A stretch of 64,000 nucleotides of DNA. It comes from an uncultured Desulfatibacillum sp. Its GTDB lineage: Bacteria > Desulfobacterota > Desulfobacteria > Desulfobacterales > SpSt-501. Both the position numbers and the translations under genes were made by a program. Positions 5,362 through 61,882 of this stretch are shown here, in pieces (position 1 is the stretch's first letter; each line of letters begins with the position of its first letter). Where the stretch lies: NCBI GenBank assembly GCA_964573635.1, contig CAZNKG010000007.1, positions 15,993 through 79,992 on the forward strand, written 5' to 3'. The notes under the pieces are model-generated. The model saw nothing but the letters and a program-made list of their open reading frames with translations, was not told the DNA's origin and did not search any database.

Positions 5362-6240
5362 TCAGCCCGGAGGCTGCAGGACGAACATCGCCGGCGACAC
5401 CGGCACATCGGCCCAGTAGTTCTCCACCACGAGCAGCGCCTCGGTGCCTTCGCCGTTCAAGACCGTCAAGCGCTGCGGCACGCGGTATGGGCCGACCCGC
5501 TGCATCTCGACGAAATCGGCCCGATACCGCAGGCCGCCGCCGGAGTCGTAGAGCTCCGTGAACCGGGCCGTGTCGCGGTCCGCGTCGAAGTGGATGCGCT
5601 GGCGCGGGCGGCCGGCCTCCGACAGCGCGAGCACCCGCCCGCCCCCGCCGGGATGGGCGGGGTCGAGCCGAACGGCGCGGTGCTCGGCGAGCGGCACCCG
5701 GCCGCAGAGCAAGGTCACGATCTCGCCGACGCGGATCGGTATGGCGAGAAGCCGCTTCAGGTCGGGGTCGGCGGTGCGGTAGCGCTGGACGGGGTTGGCG
5801 GGGTCCTGGGGATCCTGGACATACAGGAATTCGCCGTCGGTCGCCATCCGCAGCGCCGGAAAACCCGCGGCGGTGAGCACGATGCTGAGCCGGCGCGGGT
5901 CCTCGCCGACCCAGGCGATTCGTCCGTCGAGCTGGAGCCGGCCCCCCTGGCGAACCGTGAGCCGCCCGATCCCCTTGAAGCTGCGCAGCGGGTCGTTCGC
6001 CCGCCGCAGCCCCTCGAGCAGCGCCAGCGCCTCGGGCGTCGCGGCGTCCCGTTCCGCTTCCGGCGGCGGCCCCGTCTCCGGACCGGGCAGGTGGGCGCAC
6101 CCGGCCGCGGCGAAAACCGCCGCCGCCAGCGCCGCACGGACCAATCGCCCCGCCGCGCGGCCCGCCGCGCCCCGCCGTCTGCGCCCGTCCATCGGCATTC
6201 CCCTTTGCGGCCGCCGCCGCCCGTCGCTTGAGAAAGCCAT
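5362..6240 (-). CDS. LolB-like / DUF4292-type outer-membrane lipoprotein
   Basis: Signal peptide with lipobox (AVFAAAGC). The body resembles LolB/DUF4292 proteins, which commonly sit next to TPR lipoproteins. The ATG at 6240 shares one base with the TGA of the upstream TPR gene (TGATG). Internal Met starts at 6198 or 6192 are possible. Confidence 0.55.
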   Translation of the reverse strand: MAFSSDGRRRPQRGMPMDGRRRRGAAGRAAGRLVRAALAAAVFAAAGCAHLPGPETGPPPEAERDAATPEALALLEGLRRANDPLRSFKGIGRLTVRQGGRLQLDGRIAWVGEDPRRLSIVLTAAGFPALRMATDGEFLYVQDPQDPANPVQRYRTADPDLKRLLAIPIRVGEIVTLLCGRVPLAEHRAVRLDPAHPGGGGRVLALSEAGRPRQRIHFDADRDTARFTELYDSGGGLRYRADFVEMQRVGPYRVPQRLTVLNGEGTEALLVVENYWADVPVSPAMFVLQPPG

Positions 6241-10283: not shown

Positions 10284-12476
10284 ATGGCCGCGCCGGCTTC
10301 AGCACAGACGATTCCGCCTCCAGGCGAATCCCGGCTGGATTCGAAGCTATTGCTGCGCGCCTTGATCGAGCTCAACATCGCCCGCAAGAACCTGCTGAGC
10401 TATCCCGAGGGGCATCACCAGGTCGGGGCGAGCGCGCAGCGCGCCTTCCGGCACTTGCGGGCCCTTCTCGACCAGTGCGGCAACGTATCGATCGGCGTTC
10501 TGCGCGAAGGCATCGTGATCGCCGGCGAGCGCCTGGAGCCCGGAAATCCGATCCTCCGCGACCTCGCCGCGGCGCTGCGCGAGCGCCGGGTCGCCCGCGT
10601 GGACATCGACCACCGGATAAACCCGGAAGACACCCTGGCCCTTCTGCGGCTGATCGCCGGCGCCCCCGCCGACCCCGCGGCGGACCCTGAGGCGGAGGCG
10701 CCCAAGGCGGCCGAGCTCCGTTCGGTCCGGGTGCATTTCATCGACTATTCCCTGCTGCATCATGAAGAGCTCCCGGCGGGAAACCGCGCGCTCCCGGAGG
10801 CCCGATCCATTTGGCACGACTTCGTGCGGCTGATCGGCTCGGGCACTCTCACGGAATCCCCGTCCGGAAAGGTCCTCGACGATGATCCCGATCCGACGCC
10901 GGAGGAGATCGCCCGGTTCGTCAACCGGCGGGCGGAGATCGATCCCGGCCCGCTCCAGAGCTATGAGCAGGCGATCCAGAACCACCTGCAGCGCATCGGC
11001 TCGACCCCCATGCTCGACAGCGCCAAGCCCGAGATCCGGGCGCGCTTCCGAAAATTCATCGAAAGCCTCAACCCCAAACTGAGAACGCAGTTCCTGTCGG
11101 TCACGTTCGACCATTTCCACCTGCATGCGGCGCGCCCCGGCGCCGAGGCGGCCTTCGGCGACCTCCACTACGCCGTCGTGATCGAAATGCTGATCCAGGC
11201 CAACGCCGACGGCAAGGAGATCTCCCCCTCGCTGATCAACCTGCTGCGCAAGATGGCCGCGGCCGAGGCCACGGCCTCGGCGGGCGCGGGCTCGGAAGCG
11301 CTGGAGCGCTTGGCCGGGGACCTCGAACACCTTCGGGCGCTCGCTCCCTCCGGCGGGCTGCTGCGGCCCGAGGCCTATGCCGCCTATGTCGCTCCCGACT
11401 ACGATGCGACCCTGCAGGCGTTGATTCCGAACCAGCGCGGCACGGACGAACCGACGGCCCAGCCCCTCGACACCGCGGCCCACCTTGAAAGCCTGAGCGC
11501 CGAGAGCCTTGCCCGGCGGCTGGGCGACGCCTTTCTCGGGCTGCTGCAGCAGGCGGCCGATTGCGACCTCTTTCGCGAACACGCCCGCAACCTCATCCTC
11601 GTCGCGGAGGACCTGGCCCGCTGCGGGGAGTGCGCCCGGCTGCTTGACATTCTCCGCTTTTTCCAGTCGCGGGCGGACGGCGGCCCGCCGGAGGGAGCCG
11701 CGGAAATCGCGCGCAAGTGCCTGGAGGAGCTGCGCCGCCCCGGCGTCATCAACGCCGTGCTCGAGCACATCGAAAAGTCGGCGCCGGCCGCCTCCCCCGT
11801 CGAGGTGGAGCTCGCGACCGCTCTCGGCCCGGCGGCCGCCGCAGAGGCGCTCGGCCGCTTCCTCTCGCGCCGCCATCCGGCGATTCTGGAGATCCTCAAG
11901 GCGCTGGCGGCCTCCTTCCCGCAAAAGGTGTCCCACGAGCTCTCCCGGCGCCTGCGCGGCGTGGACCCCGCGCAGTTCGACGATCTCGCGGCGGTCATCG
12001 CTCGGCTGAGCCCGGAGCGCATCGAGGGCCTGCTCGCCCCCTTCCTGGACCACGCCGACCGCCGCATCCGGCAGGAGGCGCTGGCCGCCCTGGTGCGGCA
12101 AAGACACCCCGGAGCGCTCGGCCGCCTCGAGGCCCTCCTCGGCTCCCGCAACCCGGCCGAGGTGTCGGCCGCGGCCGGGCTGGTCGTGAAATACGGCGTG
12201 CGCGAAATGGTGCCGCCGATGACGCGCATCCTCGGCCGCCGGTTCCTGTTTTTCCGGACGGACCTCGACCGCGCCGAAAAACTCATCGCCGCCATGGCGC
12301 GCGTGGCCGACCCGTTCCCGCGCGACGAGCTGCGGCGGCTGCTCGGGCGGAAAATCTCGACCCATCCCCGGAGGCTGCGGAAAATCCGCGAGTATCTGAA
12401 CCCTTCGGCAGGCCGCCGGGCCCCGGGGGCGCCGCCCGCGGTAGGCCGGCCGCCGGAGAAAACCCCGGGAGCATGA
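10284..12476 (+). CDS. large protein of unknown function with C-terminal HEAT-like repeats and an N-terminal module shared with the downstream HD-GYP protein
   Basis: AGGAGG SD at 10274-10279. The C-terminal region has HEAT/PBS-lyase-like repeats (DHADRRIRQEALAALVRQRHPGALGRLEALLGSRNPAEVSAAAGLVVKYG). N-terminal residues about 20-125 align by eye with the N-terminus of the next gene. No catalytic motif recognised. Confidence 0.6.
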   Translation: MAAPASAQTIPPPGESRLDSKLLLRALIELNIARKNLLSYPEGHHQVGASAQRAFRHLRALLDQCGNVSIGVLREGIVIAGERLEPGNPILRDLAAALRERRVARVDIDHRINPEDTLALLRLIAGAPADPAADPEAEAPKAAELRSVRVHFIDYSLLHHEELPAGNRALPEARSIWHDFVRLIGSGTLTESPSGKVLDDDPDPTPEEIARFVNRRAEIDPGPLQSYEQAIQNHLQRIGSTPMLDSAKPEIRARFRKFIESLNPKLRTQFLSVTFDHFHLHAARPGAEAAFGDLHYAVVIEMLIQANADGKEISPSLINLLRKMAAAEATASAGAGSEALERLAGDLEHLRALAPSGGLLRPEAYAAYVAPDYDATLQALIPNQRGTDEPTAQPLDTAAHLESLSAESLARRLGDAFLGLLQQAADCDLFREHARNLILVAEDLARCGECARLLDILRFFQSRADGGPPEGAAEIARKCLEELRRPGVINAVLEHIEKSAPAASPVEVELATALGPAAAAEALGRFLSRRHPAILEILKALAASFPQKVSHELSRRLRGVDPAQFDDLAAVIARLSPERIEGLLAPFLDHADRRIRQEALAALVRQRHPGALGRLEALLGSRNPAEVSAAAGLVVKYGVREMVPPMTRILGRRFLFFRTDLDRAEKLIAAMARVADPFPRDELRRLLGRKISTHPRRLRKIREYLNPSAGRRAPGAPPAVGRPPEKTPGA

Positions 12477-17822: not shown

Positions 17823-18725
17823 ATGGAACCGCCCCCGCTCGACGCGGCGATCGACCGCTTCCTCGATTACCTGCTGATCGAAAAAGGGCTGGCGCGCACC
17901 ACCCTTGAATCCTACAGCCGCGACCTCCAGCGCTACGCCGCTTTTCTCTCCCGCAGCGGCCGGGCCGGCGTCTCGGACGAGGACGCCCCCCTGCTGCTCC
18001 GGCACCTGATCGAGCTGCGCGGCTCAGGACTGAACGCGCGCTCCCGCGCGCGCCACCTCGTCACCCTGCGGGGGTTTTATCGCTTCCTGCACCGCGAGGG
18101 ATTTCTCGCCCGGGACCCCGCCCGGCTGATCGAGCTCCCCAAAACGGTGCTCAAGCTCCCGGACGTGCTCTCCGTCGAGCAGGTGCGGCGCCTGTTGAAC
18201 GCGCCCTCGGGCGACGCCCCGGCCGGCATCCGCGATGCCGCCATGCTCGAGGTGCTCTACGCCGCCGGGCTGAGGGTCTCCGAGCTGGTCGGGCTGAAGA
18301 CCGCCGACGTCCACCTGGATGCCGGGTTCGTCCGGGTGCTCGGCAAGGGCGCCAAGGAGCGGGTCGTACCGATCGGCCAGTACGCCCGCGAAAGGGTCCT
18401 CTTCTACCTCGAGCACGCCCGCGGCCGCCTCCTCAAGGGGCGCGCCAGCGCCTTTCTTTTCATCGGCCGCGGCGGCCGGCCGCTCACCCGCCAGGGCTTC
18501 TGGAAGATTCTCAAGGGCTACGCCGCCGCCGCCGGCCTCCTCCAGCGCGTCACCCCGCACAGCCTGCGCCACTCCTTCGCCAGCCATCTGCTCGAGCGCG
18601 GGGCCGACCTGCGCGCCGTGCAGATGATGCTGGGCCACGCCGACATCGCGACCACCCAGATCTACACCCATGTCGCCGCCGAGCGGCTGAAGGCGCTGCA
18701 CCGCCGCTTCCATCCGCGCGGCTGA
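17823..18725 (+). CDS. xerD: site-specific tyrosine recombinase XerD
   Basis: Full-length co-linearity with XerD as I remember the E. coli protein: MLEVLYAAGLRVSELVGL, VLGKGAKERVVPIG, HSLRHSFASHLLERGADLRAVQMMLGHADIATTQIYTHV, and the C-terminal ERLKALHRRFHPRG. Confidence 0.88.
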   Translation: MEPPPLDAAIDRFLDYLLIEKGLARTTLESYSRDLQRYAAFLSRSGRAGVSDEDAPLLLRHLIELRGSGLNARSRARHLVTLRGFYRFLHREGFLARDPARLIELPKTVLKLPDVLSVEQVRRLLNAPSGDAPAGIRDAAMLEVLYAAGLRVSELVGLKTADVHLDAGFVRVLGKGAKERVVPIGQYARERVLFYLEHARGRLLKGRASAFLFIGRGGRPLTRQGFWKILKGYAAAAGLLQRVTPHSLRHSFASHLLERGADLRAVQMMLGHADIATTQIYTHVAAERLKALHRRFHPRG

Positions 18726-18896: not shown

Positions 18897-20537
18897 GTGA
18901 CCCAGGGGAACAAAGCGATCGGATGGTGGCACCCCGGCGGGCAGCCGCCGGAGCCGGCCGCAAACGTCCTGTGGCGGCTGGTCGGCGACGTCACCCGGCC
19001 GGTCTTCGTCGCCGAACGGGAGGGGGCCGCGGTGGCCGGTCAAAGCGGCTCGGCCATCCTCGGAGAGCGGCTTTTCGGGCTGCGCGACGTTCTGCCGCTT
19101 ACGGCCTATGCCGCGCCGCTGCATCCGCGGATGCTCGGCGATCCGGGGTTTCGCCGCGACTACGGCCTCAAGTACGCCTACGTCGCCGGCGAGATGGCGA
19201 ACGGCATCTCCTCCGTGCGCATGCTGATCGAGCTCGGCCGGGCCGGCATGCTCGGCGTCTTCGGCGCCGGGGGGCTCCCCCTCTCCGAGGTGGAAGCGGC
19301 CGTCCAGCGCCTGCAGGCCCACCGGCCGGAGATCCCCTTCGGCGTCAACCTGATCCACAGCCCGCTCGAGCCGGAGCTCGAGACGGCCCTGGTCGAGCTC
19401 TTCCTGAAAACCGGGGTCCGGCTGGTCAGCGCCTCGGCGTTCATCGACCTGACCCTCCCGCTCGTCTGGTACCGCGCCGCGGGGCTGCACCGCGACGCGG
19501 CCGGCCGCGTCGCGAGCCCCCACCGGATCCTCGCCAAGGTCTCCCGCGAGGAGGTCGCGCGCCGCTTCCTCTCGCCGGCGCCGCCGAAGCTTCTCGCCCA
19601 GCTCGCGGCCGCCGGCCGGATCACGGCCGAAGAGGCGCGGCTCGCCGCGGAGATTCCCGTCGCCGACGACCTCACGGCCGAGGCGGACTCCGGCGGGCAC
19701 ACCGACAACCGGCCGGCCATCGCGCTGCTGCCCGCCATGATGTCTTTGCGCGACGAAATGGCGCGCCGATTCGGTTTCGGCAGGGTGCCGCGCGTGGGCC
19801 TGGGCGGCGGGATCGCGACGCCGGAATCGCTCGCCGCCGCTTACGCCCTGGGGGCGGCTTACGCGGTCACCGGCTCGATCAACCAGGCCTGCGTCGAGGC
19901 CGGCACCTCCGCGGCGGTCGGCGAGCTTCTGGCCGAGGCGGGGCCGGCCGACGTGGCCATGGCGCCTTCGGCGGACATGTTCGAGCTCGGGGGAAAAGTC
20001 CAGGTCCTGAAGCGCGGGACCATGTTCCCCCTGCGCGCCGCGCGGCTCTTCGAGCTCTACGCGAGCCACGAGCGCTACGAGCTGATTCCCGCGCGGCTGC
20101 GCGCGACGCTCGAGCGGGACTACTTCCGCCGCTCATTCGAGGCGCAATGGGAGGAGACCCGGCGCTTCTTCGCCGCCCGCGACCCGCGGCAGATCGAAAA
20201 GGCCGAAAAAGACCCCAAGCACAAGATGGCGCTCGTCTTCCGCTCCTACCTCGGCCAGTCATCGGCCTGGGCCGTCGCCGGCGATCCGGATCGACGGGTC
20301 GACTACCAGATCTGGTGCGGCCCGGCCATGGGGGCCTTCAACCAGTGGGTGAAGGGGTCGTTCCTTGAGTCGCCGTCCAACCGGCGCACGGCCGTAGTCG
20401 CCATGAACCTGCTCTACGGCGCCGCCGTGGCCACTCGGGCGGCATGGCTCAAAGCCCAGGGGGCCGAGATGGCGCCGGAGACCGGGGCGCTGCGGCCGCT
20501 GCCGCTGGAGGATATAATCGCCCGGCTGGCCGATTGA
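18897..20537 (+). CDS. pfaD: PfaD-family trans-acting enoyl reductase (FMN, 2-nitropropane-dioxygenase-like) of PUFA/polyketide-type synthases
   Basis: GTG start preceded by GGAAGGAGG at 18880-18888. Typical PfaD segments are YAYVAGEMANGISSVRMLIELGRAGMLGVFGAGGL and EADSGGHTD. At 546 aa the size matches the PfaD family. Confidence 0.88.
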   Translation: MTQGNKAIGWWHPGGQPPEPAANVLWRLVGDVTRPVFVAEREGAAVAGQSGSAILGERLFGLRDVLPLTAYAAPLHPRMLGDPGFRRDYGLKYAYVAGEMANGISSVRMLIELGRAGMLGVFGAGGLPLSEVEAAVQRLQAHRPEIPFGVNLIHSPLEPELETALVELFLKTGVRLVSASAFIDLTLPLVWYRAAGLHRDAAGRVASPHRILAKVSREEVARRFLSPAPPKLLAQLAAAGRITAEEARLAAEIPVADDLTAEADSGGHTDNRPAIALLPAMMSLRDEMARRFGFGRVPRVGLGGGIATPESLAAAYALGAAYAVTGSINQACVEAGTSAAVGELLAEAGPADVAMAPSADMFELGGKVQVLKRGTMFPLRAARLFELYASHERYELIPARLRATLERDYFRRSFEAQWEETRRFFAARDPRQIEKAEKDPKHKMALVFRSYLGQSSAWAVAGDPDRRVDYQIWCGPAMGAFNQWVKGSFLESPSNRRTAVVAMNLLYGAAVATRAAWLKAQGAEMAPETGALRPLPLEDIIARLAD

Positions 20538-20650
20538 GCCTTGAAATCCCGCGTTTCATCAGATATGTTTCCATTTTGACAGTGACTTCAGCCCCCGGTG
20601 AGGCCCTCCGGCCTTAAGCGGTCTATTTGCGGACTTACAGGATACATGGC

Positions 20651-23600
20651 GTGAACACCAAACCGGACGCGCAGCGCCCCGTCGCCGTCATCGGAATGAG
20701 CTGCTATTTCCCCCGGGCGTCGGGGCTGAAATCCTACTGGCGCCTGCTCTTCCGGGGCGAGGACGCCATCACCGAGGTCCCGCCGAGCCATTGGTCGCGG
20801 GAGGAGTACTTCGACCCCGACCCCAAGGCTGCCGACCGCGTCTACTGCACGCGCGGGGGATTTCTCGACGCCATTCCGTTCGACCCCTCCGAATTCGGCA
20901 TTCCGCCCGCCGCCTTGGAGGCGACCGACAGCTCGCAGCTGCTCGCCCTCGTGGCGGCCAAGGCGGCGCTCGCGGATGCCGGACGGACGGCCGACCCCGC
21001 CCGCACGAGCGTCATCCTCGGGGTGACCGGGACCCAGGAGCTCGTCATCCCCCTCGGCGCGCGGCTGGGCCATCCCCGCTGGCGCCGCGCACTCGAGGCC
21101 GCCGGGGTCGACGCTGAAACCTCCCGCAAGGTCCTCGCCGGGATCGCCGCCTCCTACGTCGACTGGCAGGAGAGCTCCTTTCCGGGCCTGCTCGGCAACG
21201 TGGTCGCCGGACGCATCTGCAACCGCTTGAACCTGGGCGGAACCAACTGCGTCGTGGACGCGGCCTGCGCGAGCTCGCTCGCCGCGGTGCATCTCGCCCT
21301 GCTCGAGCTCGAAAGCGGCCGGAGCGACCTGGTGGTCACCGGCGGCGTCGACACGCTGAACGACATCTTCATGCACATGTGCTTCGCCAAGACCCGGACC
21401 CTCTCCCCGACCGGCGATGCGCGGCCCTTTTCGGCCCGGGCCGACGGCACGGTCCTCGGCGAGGGAGTGGGGCTCGTCGTGCTCAAGCGCCTCGAGGATG
21501 CCGAGCGCGACGGAAACCGCATCTACGCGGTCATCCGCGGGATCGGATCCTCGAGCGACGGCCGCTCCCAGAGCATTTACGCCCCGCGGGCGGAGGGCCA
21601 GCTCGAGGCCCTGCGCGCCGCCTACGCCGCCGCCGGGATCGATCCGGCGAGCGTCGCGCTGATCGAAGCGCACGGCACGGGCACCCGCGTCGGCGACAAG
21701 GTGGAGTTCGAGGCGCTCTGCCGGCTGCGGGAGGCTGCCGGCGGAAACGGCCGCCGCTGCGCCCTGGGCTCGGTGAAGTCCAACATCGGCCACACGAAGG
21801 CCGCGGCCGGCGCTGCCGGGCTGATCAAGGCGGCGCTCGCCCTCCATTGGAAGGTCCTGCCGCCGACGCTCAAGGCCGACCCGCCCGACCCGGCGCTCGG
21901 CATCGACGACTCGCCCTTCTTCCTGCCCGCCGCGCCGCGCCCCTGGTTCACCGCGGAGGGGCTTCCGCGCCGCGCCGGGGTGAGCGCCTTCGGATTCGGC
22001 GGCAGCAATTTCCACCTCGTCCTCGAGGAGCACGGGCCGCGGAAGAGCGCCGTCGCCTGGGACGGATCGGTCGAGCTTCTCGCCTTTTCGTCGGACGACC
22101 CCGGCGCGCTCCGGGCGGCCCTCGCCCGCTTCCGCCGCGGCGTGGAATCCCCGGAAGCCGCGGCGTGGATCGCCGCGGAAGCCGCGCGCGGCCGGGCCGC
22201 CTTTTCGGCCGCGCACGCCCACCGGCTGCTGATCGTTCTCACGTCCTCGGGCGGCGCGGCGGCCGCCCTCGACCGGGCGCTCGCCCGCCTCGCGCACCCG
22301 CCGGGGGATCCGAACCCCCCGGACGACGATATCTTTTACGGCCATGCGGGCGCCGCGCGCGGCCGGCTTGCCTTCCTTTTCCCGGGGCAGGGCAGCCAGT
22401 ACCCCGACATGGGCCGCGACCTCGTCTGCCTCTTTCCCCAAGCCATGGCCGCGATCGAGGCCGCGGACCGCCGCCTGCCGGCAGCAATCGCCCCGGGGCC
22501 GCGCATTTTTCCGCTCCCGGGCGTTTCGGCCGCGGAGGCCGAAAGCGCCCTGCGAGAGACCCGCATCGCCCAGCCCGCGCTCGCCGCCGCAAGCCTTGCC
22601 ATGCTCGCAACCCTGCGCCATTTCGGCATCCGCCCGGACGCCGCCGCGGGACACAGCTTCGGCGAGCTCACCGCCCTCTGCGCCGCGGGCTGGATGCCGG
22701 CCGAGAGCCTTTTCGACCTAGCGGCCGCCCGCGGCGCGGCCATGACCCCGGCCGCCGGCGCCGACCCCGGGTGCATGCTCGCCGTCCGGGCCCCGCTCGC
22801 CGAGATCGAAGCCGTGCTGGCGGAGGCGGGCGCCGACGTCGTCCTGGCCAACCGCAACAGCCCCATCCAGGGCGTTTTGAGCGGTCCGGCGGAGGCGATC
22901 GCCGGCGTGGCCGAGCTCTTGCGCCGCAAACGGATCGCGGCCAAGCCCATCCCGGTTGCCGGGGCCTTCCACAGCCCGTGCATGCGCGCGGCGCTCCCGC
23001 CCTTCCTGAACCAGCTCACCGCGCTGCCGCTCGCCCCGGCGGATATTCCGGTCTACTCGAACACCACGGGCGGGCCCTATCCCCCGGAGGCCGAAGCCGC
23101 GCGCCGAATCCTGGGACGGCACCTGCTCGAGCCGGTGAACTTCGTCGCCGAAATCGAGGCGATGTACGCCGCGGGATGCCGCACCTTCGTCGAGGTCGGG
23201 CCGCGGGCCGTCCTGACCGGGCTGGTGAGGGCGATTCTCGCCGGCAAAAGCCACCAGGCGATCGCCCTGGACGCCTCCGGCGGCCGCGAAAACGGGCTCG
23301 CCGACCTGGCCCGCACCCTCTGTCGGCTGGCGGCGCTCGGCTTTCCCGTGCACCTCGACCAGTGGGAGGAGGCCCCCCCTGCGGCGCCCCGGGCACCGCG
23401 GATGCAGGTCATGCTGAGCGGCGCCAACTACCGGGCCGCCCGGACCCGTGCGCCGGCGGCCGTCCCCCCCCCCGCGCCGCCGGAGCGAACCGTTGAACGC
23501 GCAGACGCGCTGCCCGATTCATCCGGCAGGCGGCCGCAGCCACCGCAGGATTTTTTGACCGAAGGACGCATGAAGAAAGATCCGCCCCTTGAGCTCAACG

Positions 23601-26600
23601 CCGCCCTCCAATCGGTAAAAGAGGGCGTGCACGCCATTCAAGCCATCCAGCTTCAAACCGCCGAGGCCCATCGGAAATTCCTTGAAACCCAGAGCGAGGC
23701 GAGCCGCATCCTGCTCGAGCTCGTGCGGGGCGCCGGGCTTGCGGCGGCGGCCGTCGCCGAGCAGGCGGCGGCGCAGACCCCGCCCGCCCTGCCGCGGACG
23801 GAAGCCCTGGCGCCGCCCCCCCCGGCCGCGCCCGCCTCCGTCCCGGCCGCTGCGCCGCCTCCGCCGCCGGCCGCCGAGATCCCGGCCGCCGCGGCCCCTG
23901 CGGCCGACGCCCCCTCGCCAATCGAGAAGGTCCTGCTCGCCGTGGTGAGCGAGCTCACGGGCTACCCGGCCGCCATGCTCGGCCTGGACCTCGACATCGA
24001 GGCCGACCTCGGCATCGACTCCATCAAGCGCGTCGAAATCCTCTCCGCCCTGGAGGAGCGCCTCCCCGGCCTGCCCCCCGTCGCCCCCGAGGAGATGGGC
24101 CGGTTGAAAACCCTGGGCCAGATCGCCGCGCGCCTGGAGGGCGCCCGCCCGCCGGAAACCGGCCCCGCGCGCACGCCGGCGCCGCCGGAGGCCGCCTCCC
24201 CGTCCGCCTGTCAGCCGGATGTCGTCTCCACGCTGCTCGCCGTGGTGAGCGAGCTCACGGGCTACCCGGCCGCCATGCTCGGCCTGGACCTCGACATCGA
24301 GGCCGACCTCGGCATCGACTCCATCAAGCGCGTCGAAATCCTCTCCGCCCTGGAGGAGCGCCTCCCCGGCCTGCCCCCCGTCGCCCCCGAGGAGATGGGC
24401 CGGTTGAAAACCCTGGGCCAGATCGCCGCGCGCCTGGACCTTACTCCGCAGGGCCTTTCCGCCGCGCCATCCCCCGCCGCGCCCCCCCCGCCGGCCGAGG
24501 CTTGCCGCGACGGCGCGCCGGCCGCCCCCCCGGCGCCCGTGCTGCGGCGGACGGTCGAGCCGGTCGACGCCCCCGCACCGGCCGAGACCCCGATCCGCAT
24601 CCCCAAGGGCCGCAAGGTCTTCGTCACCGATGACCGCACGGGGCTCGCGCCGGCCATCGTCGACGCGCTGAGCGCCATGGGCATCAGCACGGTCCTGATT
24701 TCCATCGACATCCTGAAGTTCAAGAAGGACCTGCCGCACGCCGGGGGGCTGATCATCGTCCACAACCCCGGGGCAGCCGACCCGGACGCCGAGATCCGGC
24801 ATGCCTTCGAGCTCACCCATGTCCTCGCGCGCGACCTGCTGGAATCCGCCCGTCTGGAAGGGGCCTTTTTCGCGACCGTGACGCGTCTGGACGGCGCCTT
24901 CGGCTTCGGCGGCCGGCCGCTCGCCCGCCCCGAGCAGGGCGCGCTCGCGGGGCTCGCCAAGACCGCGGCGCTCGAGTGGCCGGATGTACGCTGCCACGCT
25001 CTGGATCTTTCTCCGGAGTGGCTCGACCACCGCGCGGCCGCGGCCGCGGTGCTGCGGGAGGTGATGGCCCGCGGGCCGGTCGAGGTGGGGCTGGCGGAGG
25101 GGCGCCGCCGGACGCTCGCCCTGCTCCCCGCGCCCGACCTCCCAGGCGGCATGCCCCTTGCGGCGGACGATGTGCTGGTCGCCAGCGGCGGGGCGCGCGG
25201 CATCACCGCCGACTGCCTGATCGAGATCGCCCGCCGCATCCGGCCGACCCTGGTGCTTTTCGGACGCTCCCCCGATCCCGTCGCGGAGCCCGGCTATCTC
25301 GCCGGGATCACCGAAGAGGCCGAACTGAAGCAGGCGCTCCTCGCGCACGAATTCAACGGCCGCGGCGCGCGGCCGGCCGAGATCGAGCGGCGCCTGGGCG
25401 CGCTGCGGGCGAACCGCGAGATCGCCGCCACCCTGAAGGCCTTGGCGGCGTCCGGGGTGCGTGCGGAGTACCGCCGCGTCGACGTCCGCGACGCGGAGGC
25501 GGTCGGCCGGGCCATCGAGGCGGTGCGCGCCCGCTTCGGCCCCATCCGCGGGCTCGTGCACGGCGCCGGGGTCATCGCCGACCGTCTGATCGCCGAGAAG
25601 ACCATCGAGCAGTTCGACCGCGTCTTCGCCACCAAGGTCGCCGGATTCCGCGCCCTCGTCCGGGCCGCCCGCCCCGACGAGCTGCGGGTGATCGTGCTCT
25701 TTTCCTCCATCACGGCCCGCCTCGGCAACAAGGGGCAGGCGGATTACGCCATGGCGAACGAAGCCCTGAACAAGATGGCGCAGGCGGAAGCGCGGCGCCG
25801 GCCCGCCTGCCGGGTGGTCGCGGTGAACTGGGGGCCTTGGGCGGCGGGCATGGTCGGGCCGGCCCTGCGCCGGGAGTTCGCGCGCCAGGGGGTCCCGCTC
25901 CTCGATTCCCCCTCGGGGGCCGCGGCGCTCCTGCACGCGATCGCGCAGGCGCCCGGCGGCCCGGTCGAGGTCGTGGTCGGCGGCAGCCCCGACCCCGAGA
26001 CGACCGCCCCGGCCGCGCGGCCCCGGGCCTCGGAGCTCTCCCTGCTGTTCGAGCGCGAGATCGACCTCGAGGAATGCCCGGTCCTCGCCTCGCACGTCAT
26101 CGACGGGCACGCCGTCGTGCCCATGGCCCTCATGTCCGAGTGGTTCGGGCACGGCGCGCTGCACGAAAACCCGGGCCTCGTGCTGCACGGACTCGATGAG
26201 CTGCGGGTCCTGAACGGCATCCGCATGACCGAGCGCACCAAGCTCATCCGCCTCATGGCCGGGAAGATGCGGCGCCGGGAGGGGCGCTACGAAATCGACC
26301 TCGAGCTGCGCAACGGCCTGCGGGAGGGCCGCGACCTGATCCACTCGCGCGCCCGGGCGATCCTCGTCGACGACCTGTCCCCGCCGCCGGCCTACTCGCT
26401 GCCGCCGGCGCTCGCCGTCCGGGACTATTCCCGCAGCGTCGAGGAGATCTACGCGCGTATCCTCTTCCACGGCCGCGACCTGCACGGGCTGCGCCGGGTC
26501 CTGTGCTGCAACCCATGCGGCATGGTGGCCGAGGCCGCCGGCGCCCCGTCGCCCGAAGCCTGGCTCAAATCCCCGCTGCGCAACGGCTGGCTCGGCGACC

Positions 26601-26905
26601 CGCTCGCGCTCGACACCGCCTTTCAGATGGCGAGCCTCTGGTGCTACGAGCAGCACGGCACCGTATCGCTGCCCAGCCACGCGCAGGCCTACCGGCAGTA
26701 TCGGGCGGCCTTCCCGGCCGATGGGGTCACCATCGTGCTGGAGGTCCGGGAGGCGACCGCCCGAAAGCTGCGCGGCGATCTCTTCTTCCTCGATGCGGAC
26801 GGCGTCCTGGTGGCGCGGCTCACCGGCCTCGAGGCCGTGATGGACCCGCTGCTGAACCGCGCGTTCAAGCCGGAGGGGGCCGGGGCGGCATCGGGGCCGG
26901 CGTGA
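20651..26905 (+). CDS. pfaA: PfaA-like iterative type I synthase, domain order KS-AT-ACP-ACP-KR-DH
   Basis: KS: DAACASS with Cys codon at 21266-21268, plus GSNFHLVLEEH. AT: GQGSQY, and GHSFGE with Ser codon at 22655-22657. Two ACPs: LGIDSIKRVE, with Ser codons at 24020-24022 and 24320-24322. KR: SGGARGIT and YAMANE. PKS-type DH: HVIDGHAVVP, with His codon at 26093-26095. The start is either the GTG at 20651 (AGGA 9 nt upstream) or the TTG at 20627. Confidence 0.9.
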   Translation: MNTKPDAQRPVAVIGMSCYFPRASGLKSYWRLLFRGEDAITEVPPSHWSREEYFDPDPKAADRVYCTRGGFLDAIPFDPSEFGIPPAALEATDSSQLLALVAAKAALADAGRTADPARTSVILGVTGTQELVIPLGARLGHPRWRRALEAAGVDAETSRKVLAGIAASYVDWQESSFPGLLGNVVAGRICNRLNLGGTNCVVDAACASSLAAVHLALLELESGRSDLVVTGGVDTLNDIFMHMCFAKTRTLSPTGDARPFSARADGTVLGEGVGLVVLKRLEDAERDGNRIYAVIRGIGSSSDGRSQSIYAPRAEGQLEALRAAYAAAGIDPASVALIEAHGTGTRVGDKVEFEALCRLREAAGGNGRRCALGSVKSNIGHTKAAAGAAGLIKAALALHWKVLPPTLKADPPDPALGIDDSPFFLPAAPRPWFTAEGLPRRAGVSAFGFGGSNFHLVLEEHGPRKSAVAWDGSVELLAFSSDDPGALRAALARFRRGVESPEAAAWIAAEAARGRAAFSAAHAHRLLIVLTSSGGAAAALDRALARLAHPPGDPNPPDDDIFYGHAGAARGRLAFLFPGQGSQYPDMGRDLVCLFPQAMAAIEAADRRLPAAIAPGPRIFPLPGVSAAEAESALRETRIAQPALAAASLAMLATLRHFGIRPDAAAGHSFGELTALCAAGWMPAESLFDLAAARGAAMTPAAGADPGCMLAVRAPLAEIEAVLAEAGADVVLANRNSPIQGVLSGPAEAIAGVAELLRRKRIAAKPIPVAGAFHSPCMRAALPPFLNQLTALPLAPADIPVYSNTTGGPYPPEAEAARRILGRHLLEPVNFVAEIEAMYAAGCRTFVEVGPRAVLTGLVRAILAGKSHQAIALDASGGRENGLADLARTLCRLAALGFPVHLDQWEEAPPAAPRAPRMQVMLSGANYRAARTRAPAAVPPPAPPERTVERADALPDSSGRRPQPPQDFLTEGRMKKDPPLELNAALQSVKEGVHAIQAIQLQTAEAHRKFLETQSEASRILLELVRGAGLAAAAVAEQAAAQTPPALPRTEALAPPPPAAPASVPAAAPPPPPAAEIPAAAAPAADAPSPIEKVLLAVVSELTGYPAAMLGLDLDIEADLGIDSIKRVEILSALEERLPGLPPVAPEEMGRLKTLGQIAARLEGARPPETGPARTPAPPEAASPSACQPDVVSTLLAVVSELTGYPAAMLGLDLDIEADLGIDSIKRVEILSALEERLPGLPPVAPEEMGRLKTLGQIAARLDLTPQGLSAAPSPAAPPPPAEACRDGAPAAPPAPVLRRTVEPVDAPAPAETPIRIPKGRKVFVTDDRTGLAPAIVDALSAMGISTVLISIDILKFKKDLPHAGGLIIVHNPGAADPDAEIRHAFELTHVLARDLLESARLEGAFFATVTRLDGAFGFGGRPLARPEQGALAGLAKTAALEWPDVRCHALDLSPEWLDHRAAAAAVLREVMARGPVEVGLAEGRRRTLALLPAPDLPGGMPLAADDVLVASGGARGITADCLIEIARRIRPTLVLFGRSPDPVAEPGYLAGITEEAELKQALLAHEFNGRGARPAEIERRLGALRANREIAATLKALAASGVRAEYRRVDVRDAEAVGRAIEAVRARFGPIRGLVHGAGVIADRLIAEKTIEQFDRVFATKVAGFRALVRAARPDELRVIVLFSSITARLGNKGQADYAMANEALNKMAQAEARRRPACRVVAVNWGPWAAGMVGPALRREFARQGVPLLDSPSGAAALLHAIAQAPGGPVEVVVGGSPDPETTAPAARPRASELSLLFEREIDLEECPVLASHVIDGHAVVPMALMSEWFGHGALHENPGLVLHGLDELRVLNGIRMTERTKLIRLMAGKMRRREGRYEIDLELRNGLREGRDLIHSRARAILVDDLSPPPAYSLPPALAVRDYSRSVEEIYARILFHGRDLHGLRRVLCCNPCGMVAEAAGAPSPEAWLKSPLRNGWLGDPLALDTAFQMASLWCYEQHGTVSLPSHAQAYRQYRAAFPADGVTIVLEVREATARKLRGDLFFLDADGVLVARLTGLEAVMDPLLNRAFKPEGAGAASGPA
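23933..24438. repeat. tandem duplication of the ACP-domain coding unit inside the pfaA-like gene (300-bp period)
   Basis: By direct comparison, nt 23933-24138 and 24233-24438 are identical base for base (206 bp). The linkers between and after the copies differ. Confidence 0.95.
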
Positions 26906-26923: not shown

Positions 26924-27361
26924 TCAGCGCGGCTCGGGGGCGAAGGCGAAGAGGTCGAGCTTGATGATGCGGAAGACCGCCTGGCCGAGCGCCAGGACCC
27001 CGCCGGCCGGGTCGAGGATGTCGGCGCGGACGAAGCACAGCCTCCCGGTGCGATGGGTGGTCCAGGCGCGGCAGGTGAAAAACGCCCCCTTGGCCGGAGC
27101 GGTGTAGTGCATGTTCAGATCGATGGTCGTGCAGTTGAACCCGGGGTCGAGCTCGGTCAACACGGCGCAGGCCATCGTCGTGTCCGCCAGCGTGAAGAGG
27201 ATGCCCCCGTGGGGCTGGTCGGCGAAAGGCCAGCAGACCTGCGGCCGCGGCGCGAGCCGCGCGGCGGCCCGGCCCTCCCCGGCCTGCGTGATGCGGATGC
27301 CGAGGGTCGCGTAGAGATCGTTGCGGTTCAGCTGCTCCAGGAATTCGGGGGTGATCTCCAT
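26924..27361 (-). CDS. PaaI/4-hydroxybenzoyl-CoA-thioesterase-type hotdog-fold thioesterase
   Basis: 145 aa, pattern LGIRITQAGEGRAAARL...HGGILFTLADTTMACAV...TIDLNMHY, typical of PaaI-family hotdog thioesterases. Convergent with pfaA, with 18 nt between the stops. Confidence 0.8.
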   Translation of the reverse strand: MEITPEFLEQLNRNDLYATLGIRITQAGEGRAAARLAPRPQVCWPFADQPHGGILFTLADTTMACAVLTELDPGFNCTTIDLNMHYTAPAKGAFFTCRAWTTHRTGRLCFVRADILDPAGGVLALGQAVFRIIKLDLFAFAPEPR

Positions 27362-27375
27362 CCGCTCCGCCCGCT

Positions 27376-28002
27376 TTAACCGGCGTCCGGCCGGCCGGCA
27401 TTCCGCCGGACGCGGCGCATTCCGGGGCTGGTGTGCAGGTACATCAGCGCCGAACGGCGGCCGGCCTCGATGAACGCGGCCTCAAGCGCCTCGAACAGGA
27501 CCGGCCGGTCCGGCCAGGTGAACGCCCGCCGCTCCGCCTCGAGCGCCGCCCATTCCCCGGCCGCCTGCGGGCGGTTTTCGAACGCCGCCCGGCGGGCCGC
27601 ATCGCAGAGAAACATCTGGCAGACGATCGGCTTCAGCTGCCAGCGGCATCCTCGCGGCCCGAGATAGACGCACCGGGTGCCGGTGTTCTCGCGCTCAAGG
27701 AGCTCGATCATCCCGGCGGTCTGCCCGGCGTCCGACAAAAGGACGTTCACCACCACGTCGCCGAAGAAGACGACGATCCCCTCCCGCGAGCAGCAGGCGC
27801 TCAAACGGCTGGCGTAGCAACGGCGGCGGCAGAAACCGTCGACGTGCTCCTCGAGAAAACGGGCGGCCCGCCGCCGGAAATCGAGGTAGCCGCCGCAGTC
27901 CCGCAGCAGCGCCGCGCGCCCGGCGGGGGAGAGCCCGTCGAGGTGGCCGGCCACGATCGAAAACGCCTCGATCTGCTCGCGGTGATACGGGTTCGCGACC
28001 AT
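27376..28002 (-). CDS. Cys-rich protein, YkgJ/UPF0153-like putative Fe-S or zinc-binding protein (hypothetical)
   Basis: 208 aa with Cys clusters FCRRRCYASRLSACC and CVYLGPRGCRWQLKPIVCQMFLC, reminiscent of the CxxCxxCC (YkgJ) family. Co-directional with the thioesterase and 14 nt upstream of it. Confidence 0.45.
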   Translation of the reverse strand: MVANPYHREQIEAFSIVAGHLDGLSPAGRAALLRDCGGYLDFRRRAARFLEEHVDGFCRRRCYASRLSACCSREGIVVFFGDVVVNVLLSDAGQTAGMIELLERENTGTRCVYLGPRGCRWQLKPIVCQMFLCDAARRAAFENRPQAAGEWAALEAERRAFTWPDRPVLFEALEAAFIEAGRRSALMYLHTSPGMRRVRRNAGRPDAG

Positions 28003-28102: not shown

Positions 28103-29269
28103 ATGAACCCCACCCGCTGCGAGGTCCTGGTCGCCGGCGCCGGCCCGGCGGGATCGACGGCCGCCGGCCTGCTCGCCGCCGCCGGCCTGGCGGTCGTGCT
28201 GCTGGACGCCGAGCGCTTCCCGCGCCCGAAGCTCTGCGGCGGCCTGATCACCGCCAAGACGATCCGGCTTCTCGAGGCGCTCTTCGGGGTCGGCGCCCGG
28301 GCCCTCGGCGCCGCCGGCGTGATCCACACCGCCAGCCGGCGCTACCGGGTGAGCGGCCGCCGCGGGCAATCCATCGACGGGGTGCTCGAACACCCGTTTC
28401 ACCTCGTCGACCGCTTGGCCTACGACGACTTCTGGCTGCGCCGCGCGACCGCGGCCGGGGCCGACTTCCGCCCCGGGACCGCCGTCGCCGCCGTGGACCC
28501 CGACCTCCGGGTGGTCACGGCGAAAAACGGCGAGTCCTTCCGGGCCGAGATCATCATCGGGGCCGACGGCGTCGCGAGCCGGGTGCGCCGGGCGCTCGAG
28601 CGCGCCGCGCGCATTCCCGCCTCCAAGCGGCACGAGACCGCCGTCGCGCTCGAAGCGGCCGCACCCCGCGGGCCGCGGACGGCGTATGCCGATCAGCCGG
28701 TCATCGCCTACGGCCATCTCCCCTGGGGCTACGCCTGGTCGTTTCCGGGGCCCGCCGCGCAGCTGATCGGCATGGCCGGCCTCAAGAAAAAGGCCGGCCG
28801 CCGCCTGCGCTCGAGCTTCCAAGCGTTTCTGGCCGCTCAGCCCCTGCCCCCGGGGGCGGTGCCGAGAGCCGCGAGCCGGGAGATCCCCTACGGCAACTAC
28901 CTGCGGCGGCCGGGCTGGGACCGGGTGCTCCTCGTGGGCGACGCCGGGGGAATGGCCGACCCCTTCCTGGGCGAGGGCATCTACTACGCGCACCGCAGCG
29001 CGGCGCTCGCCGCGCGGGCGGTCATCGACTGGCGCGCGCGGCCCGAGCGGGCGATCGCGGCCTATACCGCGGCCTACCGCGCGACGATCTACCCGGAGCT
29101 CCACTATGCCCGCGCCGGCCGCCAGGTGATCTTCGCCCTGCCGCCGGCTTTTTACTTCCCGCTGCTCGCCGCCTTCCTGCGCGGCGCCCCGCGGGTCTGC
29201 GAGGAGACCATCCAGGGCGAGCGCAGCTTCCGCTGGTTCCGGCGCTTCGCCGGCAAACGCTTCCCGTAG
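28103..29269 (+). CDS. geranylgeranyl-reductase-family FAD-dependent oxidoreductase
   Basis: N-terminal dinucleotide fold VLVAGAGPAGSTAAGLLA, the PKLCGGLIT motif, GADGVASRVR, and VGDAGGMADPFLGEGIYYA. This is the standard motif set of the geranylgeranyl reductase family. Confidence 0.8.
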   Translation: MNPTRCEVLVAGAGPAGSTAAGLLAAAGLAVVLLDAERFPRPKLCGGLITAKTIRLLEALFGVGARALGAAGVIHTASRRYRVSGRRGQSIDGVLEHPFHLVDRLAYDDFWLRRATAAGADFRPGTAVAAVDPDLRVVTAKNGESFRAEIIIGADGVASRVRRALERAARIPASKRHETAVALEAAAPRGPRTAYADQPVIAYGHLPWGYAWSFPGPAAQLIGMAGLKKKAGRRLRSSFQAFLAAQPLPPGAVPRAASREIPYGNYLRRPGWDRVLLVGDAGGMADPFLGEGIYYAHRSAALAARAVIDWRARPERAIAAYTAAYRATIYPELHYARAGRQVIFALPPAFYFPLLAAFLRGAPRVCEETIQGERSFRWFRRFAGKRFP

Positions 29270-38045: not shown

Positions 38046-38328
38046 TCGCGGACCTCCGCTGCCGGTGAAATCCGGGCCGCATCGAGCGCCGCCGGGCGAC
38101 CGCGGGCTCGTGCGCCGGCGCGACGGCGGGTGTTCGAGCGGCCTTCGCCCTTTGAATATCCGGCAGGGCTTGAGGTGTCAAGCGCTCCGCGATGGACCCC
38201 GGCGCGGGGACGGCCCGCTTGACCCCCGCGGTGGATCGGCCTATAGTCCCGCCGCCGCCCCCCTCGAAGGCGCCGGCCCGGCGGGACGCGGCGGGCGGGA
38301 AAATAACGATTCGGAAGGAGCAACCCCC

Positions 38329-39264
38329 ATGAAGGTAGCCGTCATCGGAACGGGAGTGATGGGGCGCGGCTGGATCACCCAGTGCGCCATGACCGGAAAC
38401 GAGGTGCACTGCTGGGATGCGAACGCCGAGATCCTGGCCGGGACCGTCGCGGCCTGCATCGATCTGGCCTCCAAGACCGCCAAGCGCTTCAAGATGGCCG
38501 ACCCCGAGCTTCCCGCCCAGACCGGCCGGCGCATCACGACCTACACCGACAAGGCGGCCTTCATGGAGGCGGCCAAGGGCTGCGAGGTCTTCCTGGAGGT
38601 GATCTTCGAGGACATGAACCTCAAGCGCCGCGTTCTGGGCGAGCTTCTGCCGCAGCTGCCCGAGAAGGTCGTCTTCTGGTCGAACACCTCGAGCCTCGAC
38701 ATCGACGTGATGGCCGAGGCCGGGGGGCGTCCCGACCGCTCGATCATCACCCACGGCTTCAACCCCGTGCCGATGATGGCCGGGGTGGAGGTCGTCCCGG
38801 GGGTCAAGACCAGCGCCGCGACCATCGAGTTCACGCGCCGGGCCCTGCTGGAGATGAAGAAGGTGCCGTTCCTCGCGCCCAACATCCCCGGGTTCTGGGT
38901 GAACCGCCTGCTGCTGCCCTGGATCCTCGACGCCCTGCGCCTCCTCGAGCAGGGGAAGATCAAGGTGGAGGACGGGGACCTCGGGCTGAACACGAGCCTC
39001 GGCCATCCCCAGGGGGTCTTCAAGCTCCTCGACTTCGTGAGCACGGCGACCACCCTGAGGGTCGCGCTCGAGATGTACCGCGCCTCCAACGACCCGCGGC
39101 TCTACCCGCCGCTCATCCTGATGCGGATGGTGAAGAACGGGGAGTTCGGCGCGACCGTCGGCAAGGGGTGCTACGACTGGAGCGACCCGCGCAATCCCAA
39201 GGCGCGCGACCTGTCGCACTACGTGGTGGGCGCGGCGGAGGACATGACCGCCCCTTTGACGTAA
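38329..39264 (+). CDS. 3-hydroxyacyl-CoA dehydrogenase family protein (NAD-binding)
   Basis: GGAAGGAG SD at 38313-38320. Starts MKVAVIGTGVMGRGW (Rossmann fold). The EVIFEDMNLKR and NTSSL motifs are typical of HCDH/Hbd-type enzymes. Confidence 0.75.
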   Translation: MKVAVIGTGVMGRGWITQCAMTGNEVHCWDANAEILAGTVAACIDLASKTAKRFKMADPELPAQTGRRITTYTDKAAFMEAAKGCEVFLEVIFEDMNLKRRVLGELLPQLPEKVVFWSNTSSLDIDVMAEAGGRPDRSIITHGFNPVPMMAGVEVVPGVKTSAATIEFTRRALLEMKKVPFLAPNIPGFWVNRLLLPWILDALRLLEQGKIKVEDGDLGLNTSLGHPQGVFKLLDFVSTATTLRVALEMYRASNDPRLYPPLILMRMVKNGEFGATVGKGCYDWSDPRNPKARDLSHYVVGAAEDMTAPLT

Positions 39265-40348: not shown

Positions 40349-40551
40349 GGCTGGACCTTTCCTTTCGCTGGTTCGCACAACGACGCCCGGGAAAATGATC
40401 CGTCCGGAACGGTTTGTCAAGCGGGCGGCGCCGCCGCGCCCCGCGGGCCGGCGGCCTCAAGCCGGCCCCGCGATCTGCCGATAACCGAAGCGTTGAAGCC
40501 CGCGGCGGGAGGCCCGCGCGCTTCGGCCCATCACCTCGGCGGGGGAAGGCT

Positions 40552-45124: not shown

Positions 45125-45153
45125 GGCCGCGGGGGACGGAAGGGGGGCAGACG

Positions 45154-58595: not shown

Positions 58596-58628
58596 CCGCC
58601 GCCCGATTCCCATCGGCATGGAGGAGAG

Positions 58629-59378: not shown

Positions 59379-59438
59379 AGCGCCGCCGGCCCCGGCACCG
59401 GACACCCGGCATCTAACACGCATTATTGGAGAGCCGTC

Positions 59439-60605: not shown

Positions 60606-60651
60606 AACAGCCCCGCGCCGCGCGGATGGGGTTCTTCAAGGAGACCGCAAC

Positions 60652-61083: not shown

Positions 61084-61100
61084 AGGGGAGGACATTCGCC

Positions 61101-61871: not shown

Positions 61872-61882
61872 AGGGAGGCCGG

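Follow-up and report, generated by a model that had tools for sequence, protein, structure and literature searches.

The 64,000-nucleotide stretch of an uncultured Desulfatibacillum sp. genome analyzed here (contig CAZNKG010000007.1; hereafter, the window) has a G+C content of ~71% and carries two adjacent genes, pfaD and pfaA, of the type found in synthases for polyunsaturated fatty acids (PUFAs). The first, pfaD (18897..20537, + strand), encodes a PfaD-family trans-acting enoyl reductase (ER) of 546 amino acids with the Pfam domains FabD_helical_ins and NMO. After a gap of 90 nt follows pfaA (20627..26905, + strand, with an alternative start at 20651), which encodes a PfaA-type megasynthase of 2092 amino acids with the architecture KS-AT-ACP-ACP-KR-DH, its DH being of the polyketide synthase (PKS) type. 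We applied the curated family models TIGR02814 (PfaD), TIGR02813 (PfaA), TIGR02225, TIGR00369, and TIGR02032 with their cut-offs and identified domains with Pfam. PfaD scored 624.4 bits (cut-off 449.25) and PfaA scored 1351.6 bits (cut-off 1010.1), and by these cut-offs both are members of their families. Analysis of the G+C content at third codon positions (GC3) gave a clean gene map, in which pfaD and pfaA are supported as real genes at a GC3 of 0.91. The source contig is a 175,115-bp contig of JGI metagenome 3300037465 (Ga0394876_0000223), and its IMG gene calls agree with both genes, with identical coordinates for pfaD and with the start of pfaA at 20651 (2084 amino acids).

The Pfam domains of PfaA lie in the order KS (amino acids 17-416), AT (583-869), two PP-binding domains, KR (1520-1743), and PS-DH (~1803-2070). 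In the DNA, all on the + strand, this corresponds approximately to 20675-21874 for KS, 22373-23233 for AT, 23930-24136 and 24230-24436 for the two ACPs, 25184-25855 for KR, and 26033-26836 for DH. The catalytic motifs are intact in the KS (DAACASS, HGTGT, and KSNIGH, giving Cys-His-His), the AT (GHSFG and GAFHS), the KR (GGARGIT and YAMAN), and the DH (HVIDGHAVVP and DTAFQ), and the ACP motif GIDSI is present twice. An initial annotation of the window, made from the DNA letters, had described a PfaD-type ER and a single KS-AT-ACP2-KR-DH megasynthase, and the curated models, the Pfam order, and the motifs bear this out. The two ACP domains form a 206-nt direct repeat with 100% identity (23933-24138 and 24233-24438, spaced 300 nt apart), which points to a recent duplication or to concerted evolution. 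Such a repeat is also a site where assemblers can collapse or expand the number of ACPs.

We searched the whole window by tblastn with a true PfaC (KS-CLF-FabAx2, where CLF is the chain-length factor; from locus L061) and a PfaBC fusion (from locus L016). Even at E<=10, the only matches were the KS and AT of PfaA itself, which are the one KS and the one AT in the window; there is no pfaC within 37 kb downstream or 20 kb upstream of the gene pair. The annotated window genes include no phosphopantetheinyl transferase (PPTase; ACPS- or Sfp-type), no second AT, no FabA/FabZ-type DH, and none of oleA-D. Hence, neither a complete PUFA synthase (pfaA, pfaC, and pfaD) nor a pfa-ole system is encoded within these 64 kb, and the earlier statement that a second KS/CLF, PfaB, PfaC, and a FabA-type DH are missing here is correct. 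Complete clusters in the sister group likewise have neither a PPTase nor a separate PfaB AT nearby, which makes this the norm for the family, and absence from 64 kb does not equal absence from the genome. We found no Rfam elements between 17 and 30 kb of the window, and matches to promoter and terminator consensus sequences were no more frequent than in a shuffled background.

To place the gene pair in its family, we mapped a second KS, a FabA-type DH, and the neighbours seen in the window onto each of 80 related genome loci. The closest PfaA homologs are ~60% identical and come from metagenome-assembled genomes (MAGs) of Desulfobacterales, which share with the window the gene order HAD-GDH-GltS-like-xerD-pfaD-pfaA. 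The core of this order, xerD-pfaD-pfaA, is found in most of the 80 loci across Desulfobacterales (most of L001-L082). In the window, xerD (17823..18725, + strand) encodes a tyrosine recombinase with 360 bits against TIGR02225 (XerD; cut-off 330); this conserved gene upstream of pfaD serves as the anchor of the synteny and has no catalytic role in the system. This order-wide synteny argues for pfaD-pfaA residing at a fixed, vertically inherited chromosomal site next to xerD, while the position of pfaC(-ole) varies. A PfaC or PfaBC is encoded 0 to ~5.4 kb downstream of pfaA in 19 of the 80 loci, often behind intervening genes that include homologs of one or the other of two neighbours of the window pfaA, the cysteine-rich protein hyp208 and a geranylgeranyl-reductase-family protein (GG-reductase). 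Another 13 loci (Desulfobacula, Desulfospira, and others) encode a PfaA with a fused C-terminal FabA-type DH, and a second KS was not seen there. In 28 loci, the window included, at least 9 kb of downstream sequence is available and pfaC was not seen in it. The pfaC-linked, fused, and unlinked classes interleave in the KS-AT tree. We also considered the number of ACPs as a marker of a stand-alone or a partnered PfaA, and it fails as such: there are two in essentially all PfaA proteins of the family, with pfaC adjacent or not.

Complete members of the family read pfaD-pfaA-(hyp208 homolog/GG-reductase)-pfaC-oleABCD. In the sister group, the complete clusters contain pfaA, a helicase gene, hyp211/212 (44-49% identical to hyp208), pfaC, oleA, oleB, oleC, and oleD. 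The best curated matches of these ole genes are olefin beta-lactone synthetase (OleC) and 2-alkyl-3-oxoalkanoate reductase (OleD), both below the equivalog cut-offs. Genes of this kind directly follow pfaC as oleABCD in L085 (15447-20271), L088, and L089, and as OleB-, OleC-, and OleD-like genes only in L084 (17077-20825). The pfaC-ole loci predict that uncultured relatives of sulfate reducers make long polyolefin hydrocarbons.

Three accessory genes lie downstream of the window pfaA. According to the initial annotation, a convergent hotdog thioesterase takes the position of pfaC. The gene is indeed there (26924..27361, - strand, 19 nt from the pfaA stop), but hotdog thioesterases are a known accessory class of pfa/ole operons (PMC6463001) and the protein is no stand-in for PfaC. 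It is a hotdog-fold 4HBT thioesterase of the PaaI/YbdB type (PF03061, 2e-11; TIGR00369, 53 bits, cut-off 36.6) whose nearest solved structures are 3nwz, 3dkz, and HI1161. Its position is conserved in L002 and in L210, the closest relative that we found, and in both it also lies next to hyp208 (74% and 79% identity of the thioesterase, respectively). By genetic linkage and hotdog fold it fits the PfaT/Orf6 class of pfa/ole-associated thioesterases; no solved structure matching at E<=10 is named Orf6 or PfaT, and the best matches are PaaI/YbdB-type hotdogs. The protein is likely an accessory or editing enzyme.

The second gene, hyp208 (27376..28002, - strand), encodes a conserved cysteine-rich protein of 208 amino acids without a match in Pfam, NCBIfam, PDB sequences, or PDB folds. 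It has more than 1300 homologs of 200-215 amino acids with 8 invariant cysteines; those listed with a source name are called 'hypothetical', with one 'Fe-S-cluster containing protein' (a JGI label), and none has a Pfam domain. The AlphaFold2 model is confident and mostly helical (pLDDT 87, pTM 0.85). Homologs with 44-51% identity neighbour pfaA or, in complete clusters, occupy the stretch that separates it from pfaC, and the gene recurs in L002, L013, L016, L049, L057, L060, L061, L085, L087-L089, and L210. It is near pfaA in 14 of 51 non-fused family loci versus 1 of 120 unrelated high-GC PfaC loci. The cysteine pattern suggests that hyp208 may bind a metal or an Fe-S cluster. It may resemble proteins with COG0727/YkgJ-type cysteine motifs, a likeness with which the one JGI label would agree. 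In the high-GC relative L087 (2631-4585), the interval from a truncated pfaA to pfaBC holds a hyp208 homolog along with genes for Zn-ribbon, NifU_N, and Nitro_FeMo-Co proteins, the last resembling dinitrogenase cofactor-binding proteins, and this neighbourhood hints at an Fe-S-related role.

The third gene (28103..29269, + strand) encodes a FAD-dependent oxidoreductase of the GG-reductase family (TIGR02032, 185.3 bits, cut-off 158.8). Homologs are encoded between pfaA and pfaC in L007, L008, L031, L032, and L078 and downstream of pfaA in L002, L006, L009, and L210. This enzyme is thus a recurrent neighbour in the clusters and could hydrogenate double bonds of a polyunsaturated product. Other genes occupy this region in clade members at the 60% identity level: a FabK-like enoyl-ACP reductase gene (TIGR03151, 269-276 bits, below the cut-off) directly follows pfaA in L001 (16624-18362) and L002 (16371-17846), accompanied by a methyltransferase gene in L001 and a second 4HBT thioesterase gene in L002. 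The window has none of these FabK-like, methyltransferase, and second thioesterase genes.

L210 is an 11-kb Logan contig with 71.7% G+C, on which the C-terminus of PfaA is 73% identical to that of the window. Its layout is the same, running from PfaA through the thioesterase, the hypothetical protein, the GG-reductase, and an EF-hand protein to PepP and onward. The synonymous divergence (dS) between the window and L210 is about 0.5-0.9. The ratio of nonsynonymous to synonymous divergence (dN/dS) ranges from 0.18 to 0.38 for pfaA and the accessory genes, with 0.28 for pfaA, 0.18 for the thioesterase gene, and 0.38 for both hyp208 and the GG-reductase gene; the housekeeping gene for PepP next door has 0.21. 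Hence, pfaA and its accessory genes are maintained by purifying selection and are not decaying.

We next consider where pfaC lies in relatives without a linked copy. Locus L064 has no pfaC within 10 kb of pfaA, and its 761,554-bp contig encodes a PfaBC of 2357 amino acids (P0146) at a distance of ~65 kb, with OleB-, OleC-, and OleD-like genes coming after it. In L086, pfaC, oleA, and oleB form an orphan block, and the 8.5 kb upstream of this block contain no pfaA. The window itself belongs to a clade with L001-L006, L029, and L034 (98% bootstrap). Within this clade, the surroundings of pfaA in L006 are free of pfaC over 9.8 kb on the upstream side and 10.0 kb on the downstream side. Two ENA contigs, of 173,904 bp and 116,011 bp, carry members of the protein cluster of its PfaA (P0004), the first a full-length protein and the second two fragments. 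A PfaC cluster without an AT (P0221) is likewise represented on ENA contigs of precisely 116,011 and 173,904 bp. Because chance does not credibly explain two exact matches in size for one pair of clusters, we take the contigs to be shared. In the L006 lineage, pfaC is therefore on the same contig as pfaA and more than 10 kb away, a conclusion that rests on the exact size match. The initial annotation had named a partner pfaC elsewhere in the genome as the finding that would overturn its reading, and such a gene now appears within the clade, in the L006 lineage, though not for the genome of the window.

Further PfaC sequences came from other lineages or were less easily placed. The 120 high-GC PfaC loci listed from metagenomes belong to other lineages, with at most 64% KS identity to the window. 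Another PfaC fragment without an AT (P0487), found with the DH-DH region of P0221, is 68% identical to P0221 and more GC-biased. This divergence would be expected for another sub-branch of the clade, to which the fragment may belong. A high-GC JGI PfaBC (P0145) was rejected as the partner of the window genes since it comes from a different sample, and a further look-up of the clusters gave no more contigs shared by PfaA and PfaC clusters.

Overall, we consider it probable, though well short of certain, that the window holds the PfaD/PfaA half, with accessories, of a Desulfobacterota pfa-type synthase whose PfaC gene, probably accompanied by ole genes, lies in another part of the genome and whose product would be a polyunsaturated chain. 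We favour a split synthase because the architecture of PfaA with its two ACPs is the same as in family members partnered by PfaC, because hyp208 and the GG-reductase are accessories that complete clusters, too, carry between pfaA and pfaC, and because pfaC is unlinked in L064, in L086, and in the L006 lineage of the clade. For the same reasons, the absence of PfaC from 64 kb does not support the conclusion of the initial annotation that this is a reduced synthase. Its prediction of a saturated, mono-unsaturated, or hydroxylated long-chain product in place of EPA or DHA is sound chemistry if PfaC is truly absent (PMC9667614), but the unlinked pfaC genes of relatives speak against that premise. 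For this particular genome, we infer both the presence of pfaC and the identity of the product.

The established enzymology of PUFA synthases suggests how such a system could work. The two ACPs would be primed by a PPTase encoded elsewhere, malonyl units would be loaded by the AT, and the chain would be elongated by the KS of PfaA and, in some cycles, by the KS-CLF of PfaC. The KR would then reduce the beta-keto group. Saturated chains arise from a PKS-type DH together with an ER, whereas FabA-type DHs are required for cis double bonds (PMC9667614). During 'saturating' cycles, a trans-2-enoyl intermediate would thus be formed by the PKS-type DH and reduced by PfaD, and in 'unsaturating' cycles the FabA-type DH/isomerases of PfaC would introduce cis double bonds that are kept. 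In the pfa-ole system of Shewanella, OleA takes acyl chains from the Pfa ACPs toward a 31:9 hydrocarbon, and the hotdog thioesterase PfaT is a supporting accessory (PMC6463001); a pairing of pfa and ole has also been proposed for the deltaproteobacterial Type I clusters (PMC3098273). In the sister lineages, the acyl-ACP product would probably be taken by OleA-D to form a long polyolefin, and the thioesterase might have a supporting role like that of PfaT.

Several observations weigh against a split synthase. The co-residence of pfaA and pfaC in L006 is argued from the exact size identity of contigs, not from their sequence, and the direct evidence from the clade comes from one sub-branch (L003/L006), with the window branching outside the other eight members. 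All nine clade loci are without a linked pfaC, a pattern that a clade-wide loss with autonomous function in the other sub-branches would also give. No pfaC was found for the window organism, either in the 64 kb or in the 11-kb L210 contig with its identical pfaC-less layout. Among the best 120 of more than 7000 PfaC matches, none lies on a contig of 175,115 bp, the size of the window's contig, or on contigs sized as those of L001, L002, and L004, which is uninformative at this scope. Equally uninformative is a scan of JGI metagenomes with a GC3-biased back-translation of the PfaC motif VMPGTLMY, in which the sample of the window was not among the matches listed. Retention of pfaC in the window lineage is nevertheless favoured, although not proven, by parsimony, since pfaC is present in the outgroups and inside the clade and the window branches first in the clade.

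The alternative that the initial annotation had in mind is a lineage of the window and L210 that lost pfaC and ole, leaving PfaA and PfaD alone as an iterative enzyme resembling a type I fatty acid synthase (FAS), which we judge to be rather unlikely. The product would be a saturated (or 3-hydroxy/trans-enoyl) long-chain acyl-ACP. The hotdog thioesterase would release the chain, which the GG-reductase-family enzyme might modify. KS, AT, ACP, KR, PKS-type DH, and trans-ER do make up a complete reducing cycle with intact motifs, and since the ER is fed by the PKS-type DH, PfaA and PfaD would give saturated chains (PMC9667614). The long flanks without pfaC on both sides of the pair and the lack of a linked pfaC in 9 of 9 clade loci agree with such a loss, as does the retention under purifying selection, in L210, of a pfaC-less layout with the thioesterase directly after pfaA. 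There are also pfa variants without a KS/CLF in Desulfobacula and Desulfospira, and a pfa-like cluster, Type S, has been proposed as a possible core FAS of Desulfobacterium autotrophicum (Shulse & Allen 2011, PMC3098273). However, pfaC is present but unlinked in the L006 lineage and other relatives, the window PfaA has no architectural change relative to its PfaC-partnered homologs and nothing positive that sets it apart, and accessory hotdog thioesterases accompany complete pfa systems too. Our literature searches returned no PfaA-PfaD pair that works without PfaC, and to our knowledge none is known to function in this way. A self-sufficient two-protein 'minimal Pfa' with thioesterase, hyp208, and flavoprotein, whose products in an anaerobe would be saturated or hydroxylated long-chain acids, is accordingly a tentative proposal that we would not expect to hold.

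The pair might instead feed its acyl chain to an unlinked pathway other than PfaC/Ole, such as a type III PKS, a hybrid of nonribosomal peptide synthetase (NRPS) and PKS, or a glycolipid pathway, comparable to phenolic lipids, heterocyst glycolipids, and zeamine-type products. Hybrid pathways have repeatedly taken up modules of the pfa type, with various losses of domains (PMC13291983; PMC3098273), and the GG-reductase-family protein and hyp208 are unexplained accessories. We still regard this as improbable, as neither the window nor any clade locus has a type III PKS, NRPS, or glycosyltransferase partner beside the genes, and the family context points to pfaC and ole. Least of all do we expect a non-functional remnant of a partly transferred or decayed pfa cluster, which is highly improbable. 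The two-gene Type J was called 'apparently partial' in 2011 (PMC3098273), but here the 6.3-kb open reading frame (ORF) is intact with every catalytic motif. We reject a decaying remnant on these motifs and on the dN/dS values of 0.18-0.38 against L210 at a dS of about 0.65, and a recent partial horizontal transfer on the order-wide xerD-pfaD-pfaA synteny, which argues for vertical inheritance.

Loss of domains, fusion, and splitting have been documented widely in clusters of the pfa type (PMC3098273; PMC13291983), and the view that the two-gene form matches no described system was too strong: Type J and Types I and K were catalogued in 2011, although Types I, J, and K have no biochemical characterization (PMC3098273). 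Types I and K (Geobacter, Desulfuromonas, Pelobacter, and Gemmata; Desulfococcus oleovorans; PMC3098273) resemble the window in having pfaD on the 5' side and a PfaA-type KS-MAT-ACPn-KR(-DH) protein, and the window PfaA is 49-53% identical to Geomonas and Desulfococcus proteins. A link to ole has been proposed for these types (PMC3098273), and ole genes are found in the sister loci of the window. Unlike in the window, where neither pfaC nor pfaBC lies within 64 kb, a pfaBC fusion adjoins pfaA in Types I and K, and the PfaC of the clade (P0221) has no AT and is unlinked. By sequence and context, the window locus is assigned to the deltaproteobacterial Type I/K group. Type J (Planctomyces limnophilus; PMC3098273) shares with the window a pair of genes, pfaD then pfaA, with pfaB and pfaC not adjacent; it encodes an ER followed by KS-MAT-ACPn-KR, and its KS is related to that of Type I (PMC3098273). 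However, the Type J protein has three ACPs, and its locus is planctomycete and was read as a partial transfer, whereas the window has two ACPs and a vertically inherited pair next to xerD. The Planctomycetaceae MAG relatives L045, L048, and L054 have pfaC directly downstream. The window PfaA groups with Desulfobacterales MAGs, and the likeness to Type J is one of gene content and order.

The canonical pfaABCDE, oleABCD, and pfaT genes of Shewanella and Photobacterium share with the window PfaA and PfaD proteins that are orthologous by the curated models and an accessory hotdog thioesterase. Their PfaA has 4-6 ACPs, and PfaC, PfaE, and a separate PfaB AT are clustered with it, whereas the window has two ACPs and a hotdog protein of the PaaI/YbdB type. 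In the myxobacterial pfa1-pfa2-pfa3 clusters (Sorangium and Aetherobacter), the ER likewise comes first and is followed by a KS-MAT-ACP-KR-DH protein, but pfa3 (KS-CLF-DH2-AGPAT) follows immediately, and the window has no such gene. The pfa-like heterocyst glycolipid (Hgl, Type F) and Azotobacter phenolic-lipid (Ars, Type P) systems make non-PUFA, largely saturated chains without a FabA-type DH/isomerase (PMC3098273). These systems retain a KS-CLF(-AT) partner or subunits like those of a type I FAS, and their genes cluster with ones for a glycosyltransferase or type III PKS, none of which lies near the window genes.

The variant with a FabA-fused PfaA (Desulfobacula, Desulfospira joergensenii DSM 10085, and Desulfotignum) also shows the order xerD-pfaD-pfaA, two ACPs, and no KS-CLF nearby. 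It differs by its C-terminal FabA-like DH (PF07977) on proteins of about 2500-2850 amino acids, a domain that the window PfaA does not have, and is only 41-43% identical to the window protein. These loci are L062, L065-L068, L070-L072, L074-L076, L080, and L081, for example that of Desulfospira joergensenii DSM 10085 (L068:9947-17668). The stop-to-stop ORFs of the fused PfaA are ~2350-2650 amino acids long, similar FabA-carrying proteins have ~2810-2850 amino acids, and a second KS/CLF was not seen within up to 9 kb. The variant therefore counts as a two-gene pfa system with an isomerizing DH and without a chain-length factor, possibly corresponding to Type S of Shulse & Allen (Desulfobacterium autotrophicum).

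If the synthase is split, the window locus is an ordinary one, a further member of a widespread and biochemically uncharacterized Desulfobacterota pfa(-ole) family. It would also mean that two-gene pfa clusters met in genome mining, Type J being one example, may represent only half of a split system, and that calls based on the local cluster can mislead. Were the genome truly without pfaC, it would provide a natural test case for PfaA and PfaD alone building a fatty chain, and autonomous function would imply that the KS of PfaA needs no KS-CLF partner. The conserved cysteine-rich partner hyp208, without known family or fold, is a concrete and inexpensive target for studies of PUFA or polyolefin synthesis in anaerobes.

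Elsewhere in the window, two GC3-supported ORFs encode proteins of 730 amino acids (10284-12476, + strand) and 292 amino acids (5362-6240, - strand) without a convincing family match, the sole match of the former being a weak HEAT-repeat. Farther downstream lies a bacterial cellulose synthase operon (40414-49061, + strand) encoding BcsA with a PilZ domain, BcsB, a GH8 endoglucanase (BcsZ), and a BcsC-like TPR/outer-membrane protein. A beta-oxidation-type cluster (57462-63922, + strand) encodes an enoyl-CoA hydratase, a short-chain dehydrogenase/reductase, an SCP-x-type thiolase with a DUF35/ChsH2-like OB-fold partner, and a FadB-like fusion of 3-hydroxyacyl-CoA dehydrogenase (3HCDH) and hydratase; a further 3HCDH gene is found at 38065-39264. 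Between 35141 and 38045 (- strand), the gene of an aldehyde:ferredoxin oxidoreductase (AOR family) adjoins that of a CofD-like 2-phospho-L-lactate transferase homolog, and the CofD-like neighbour is kept in L002 too.

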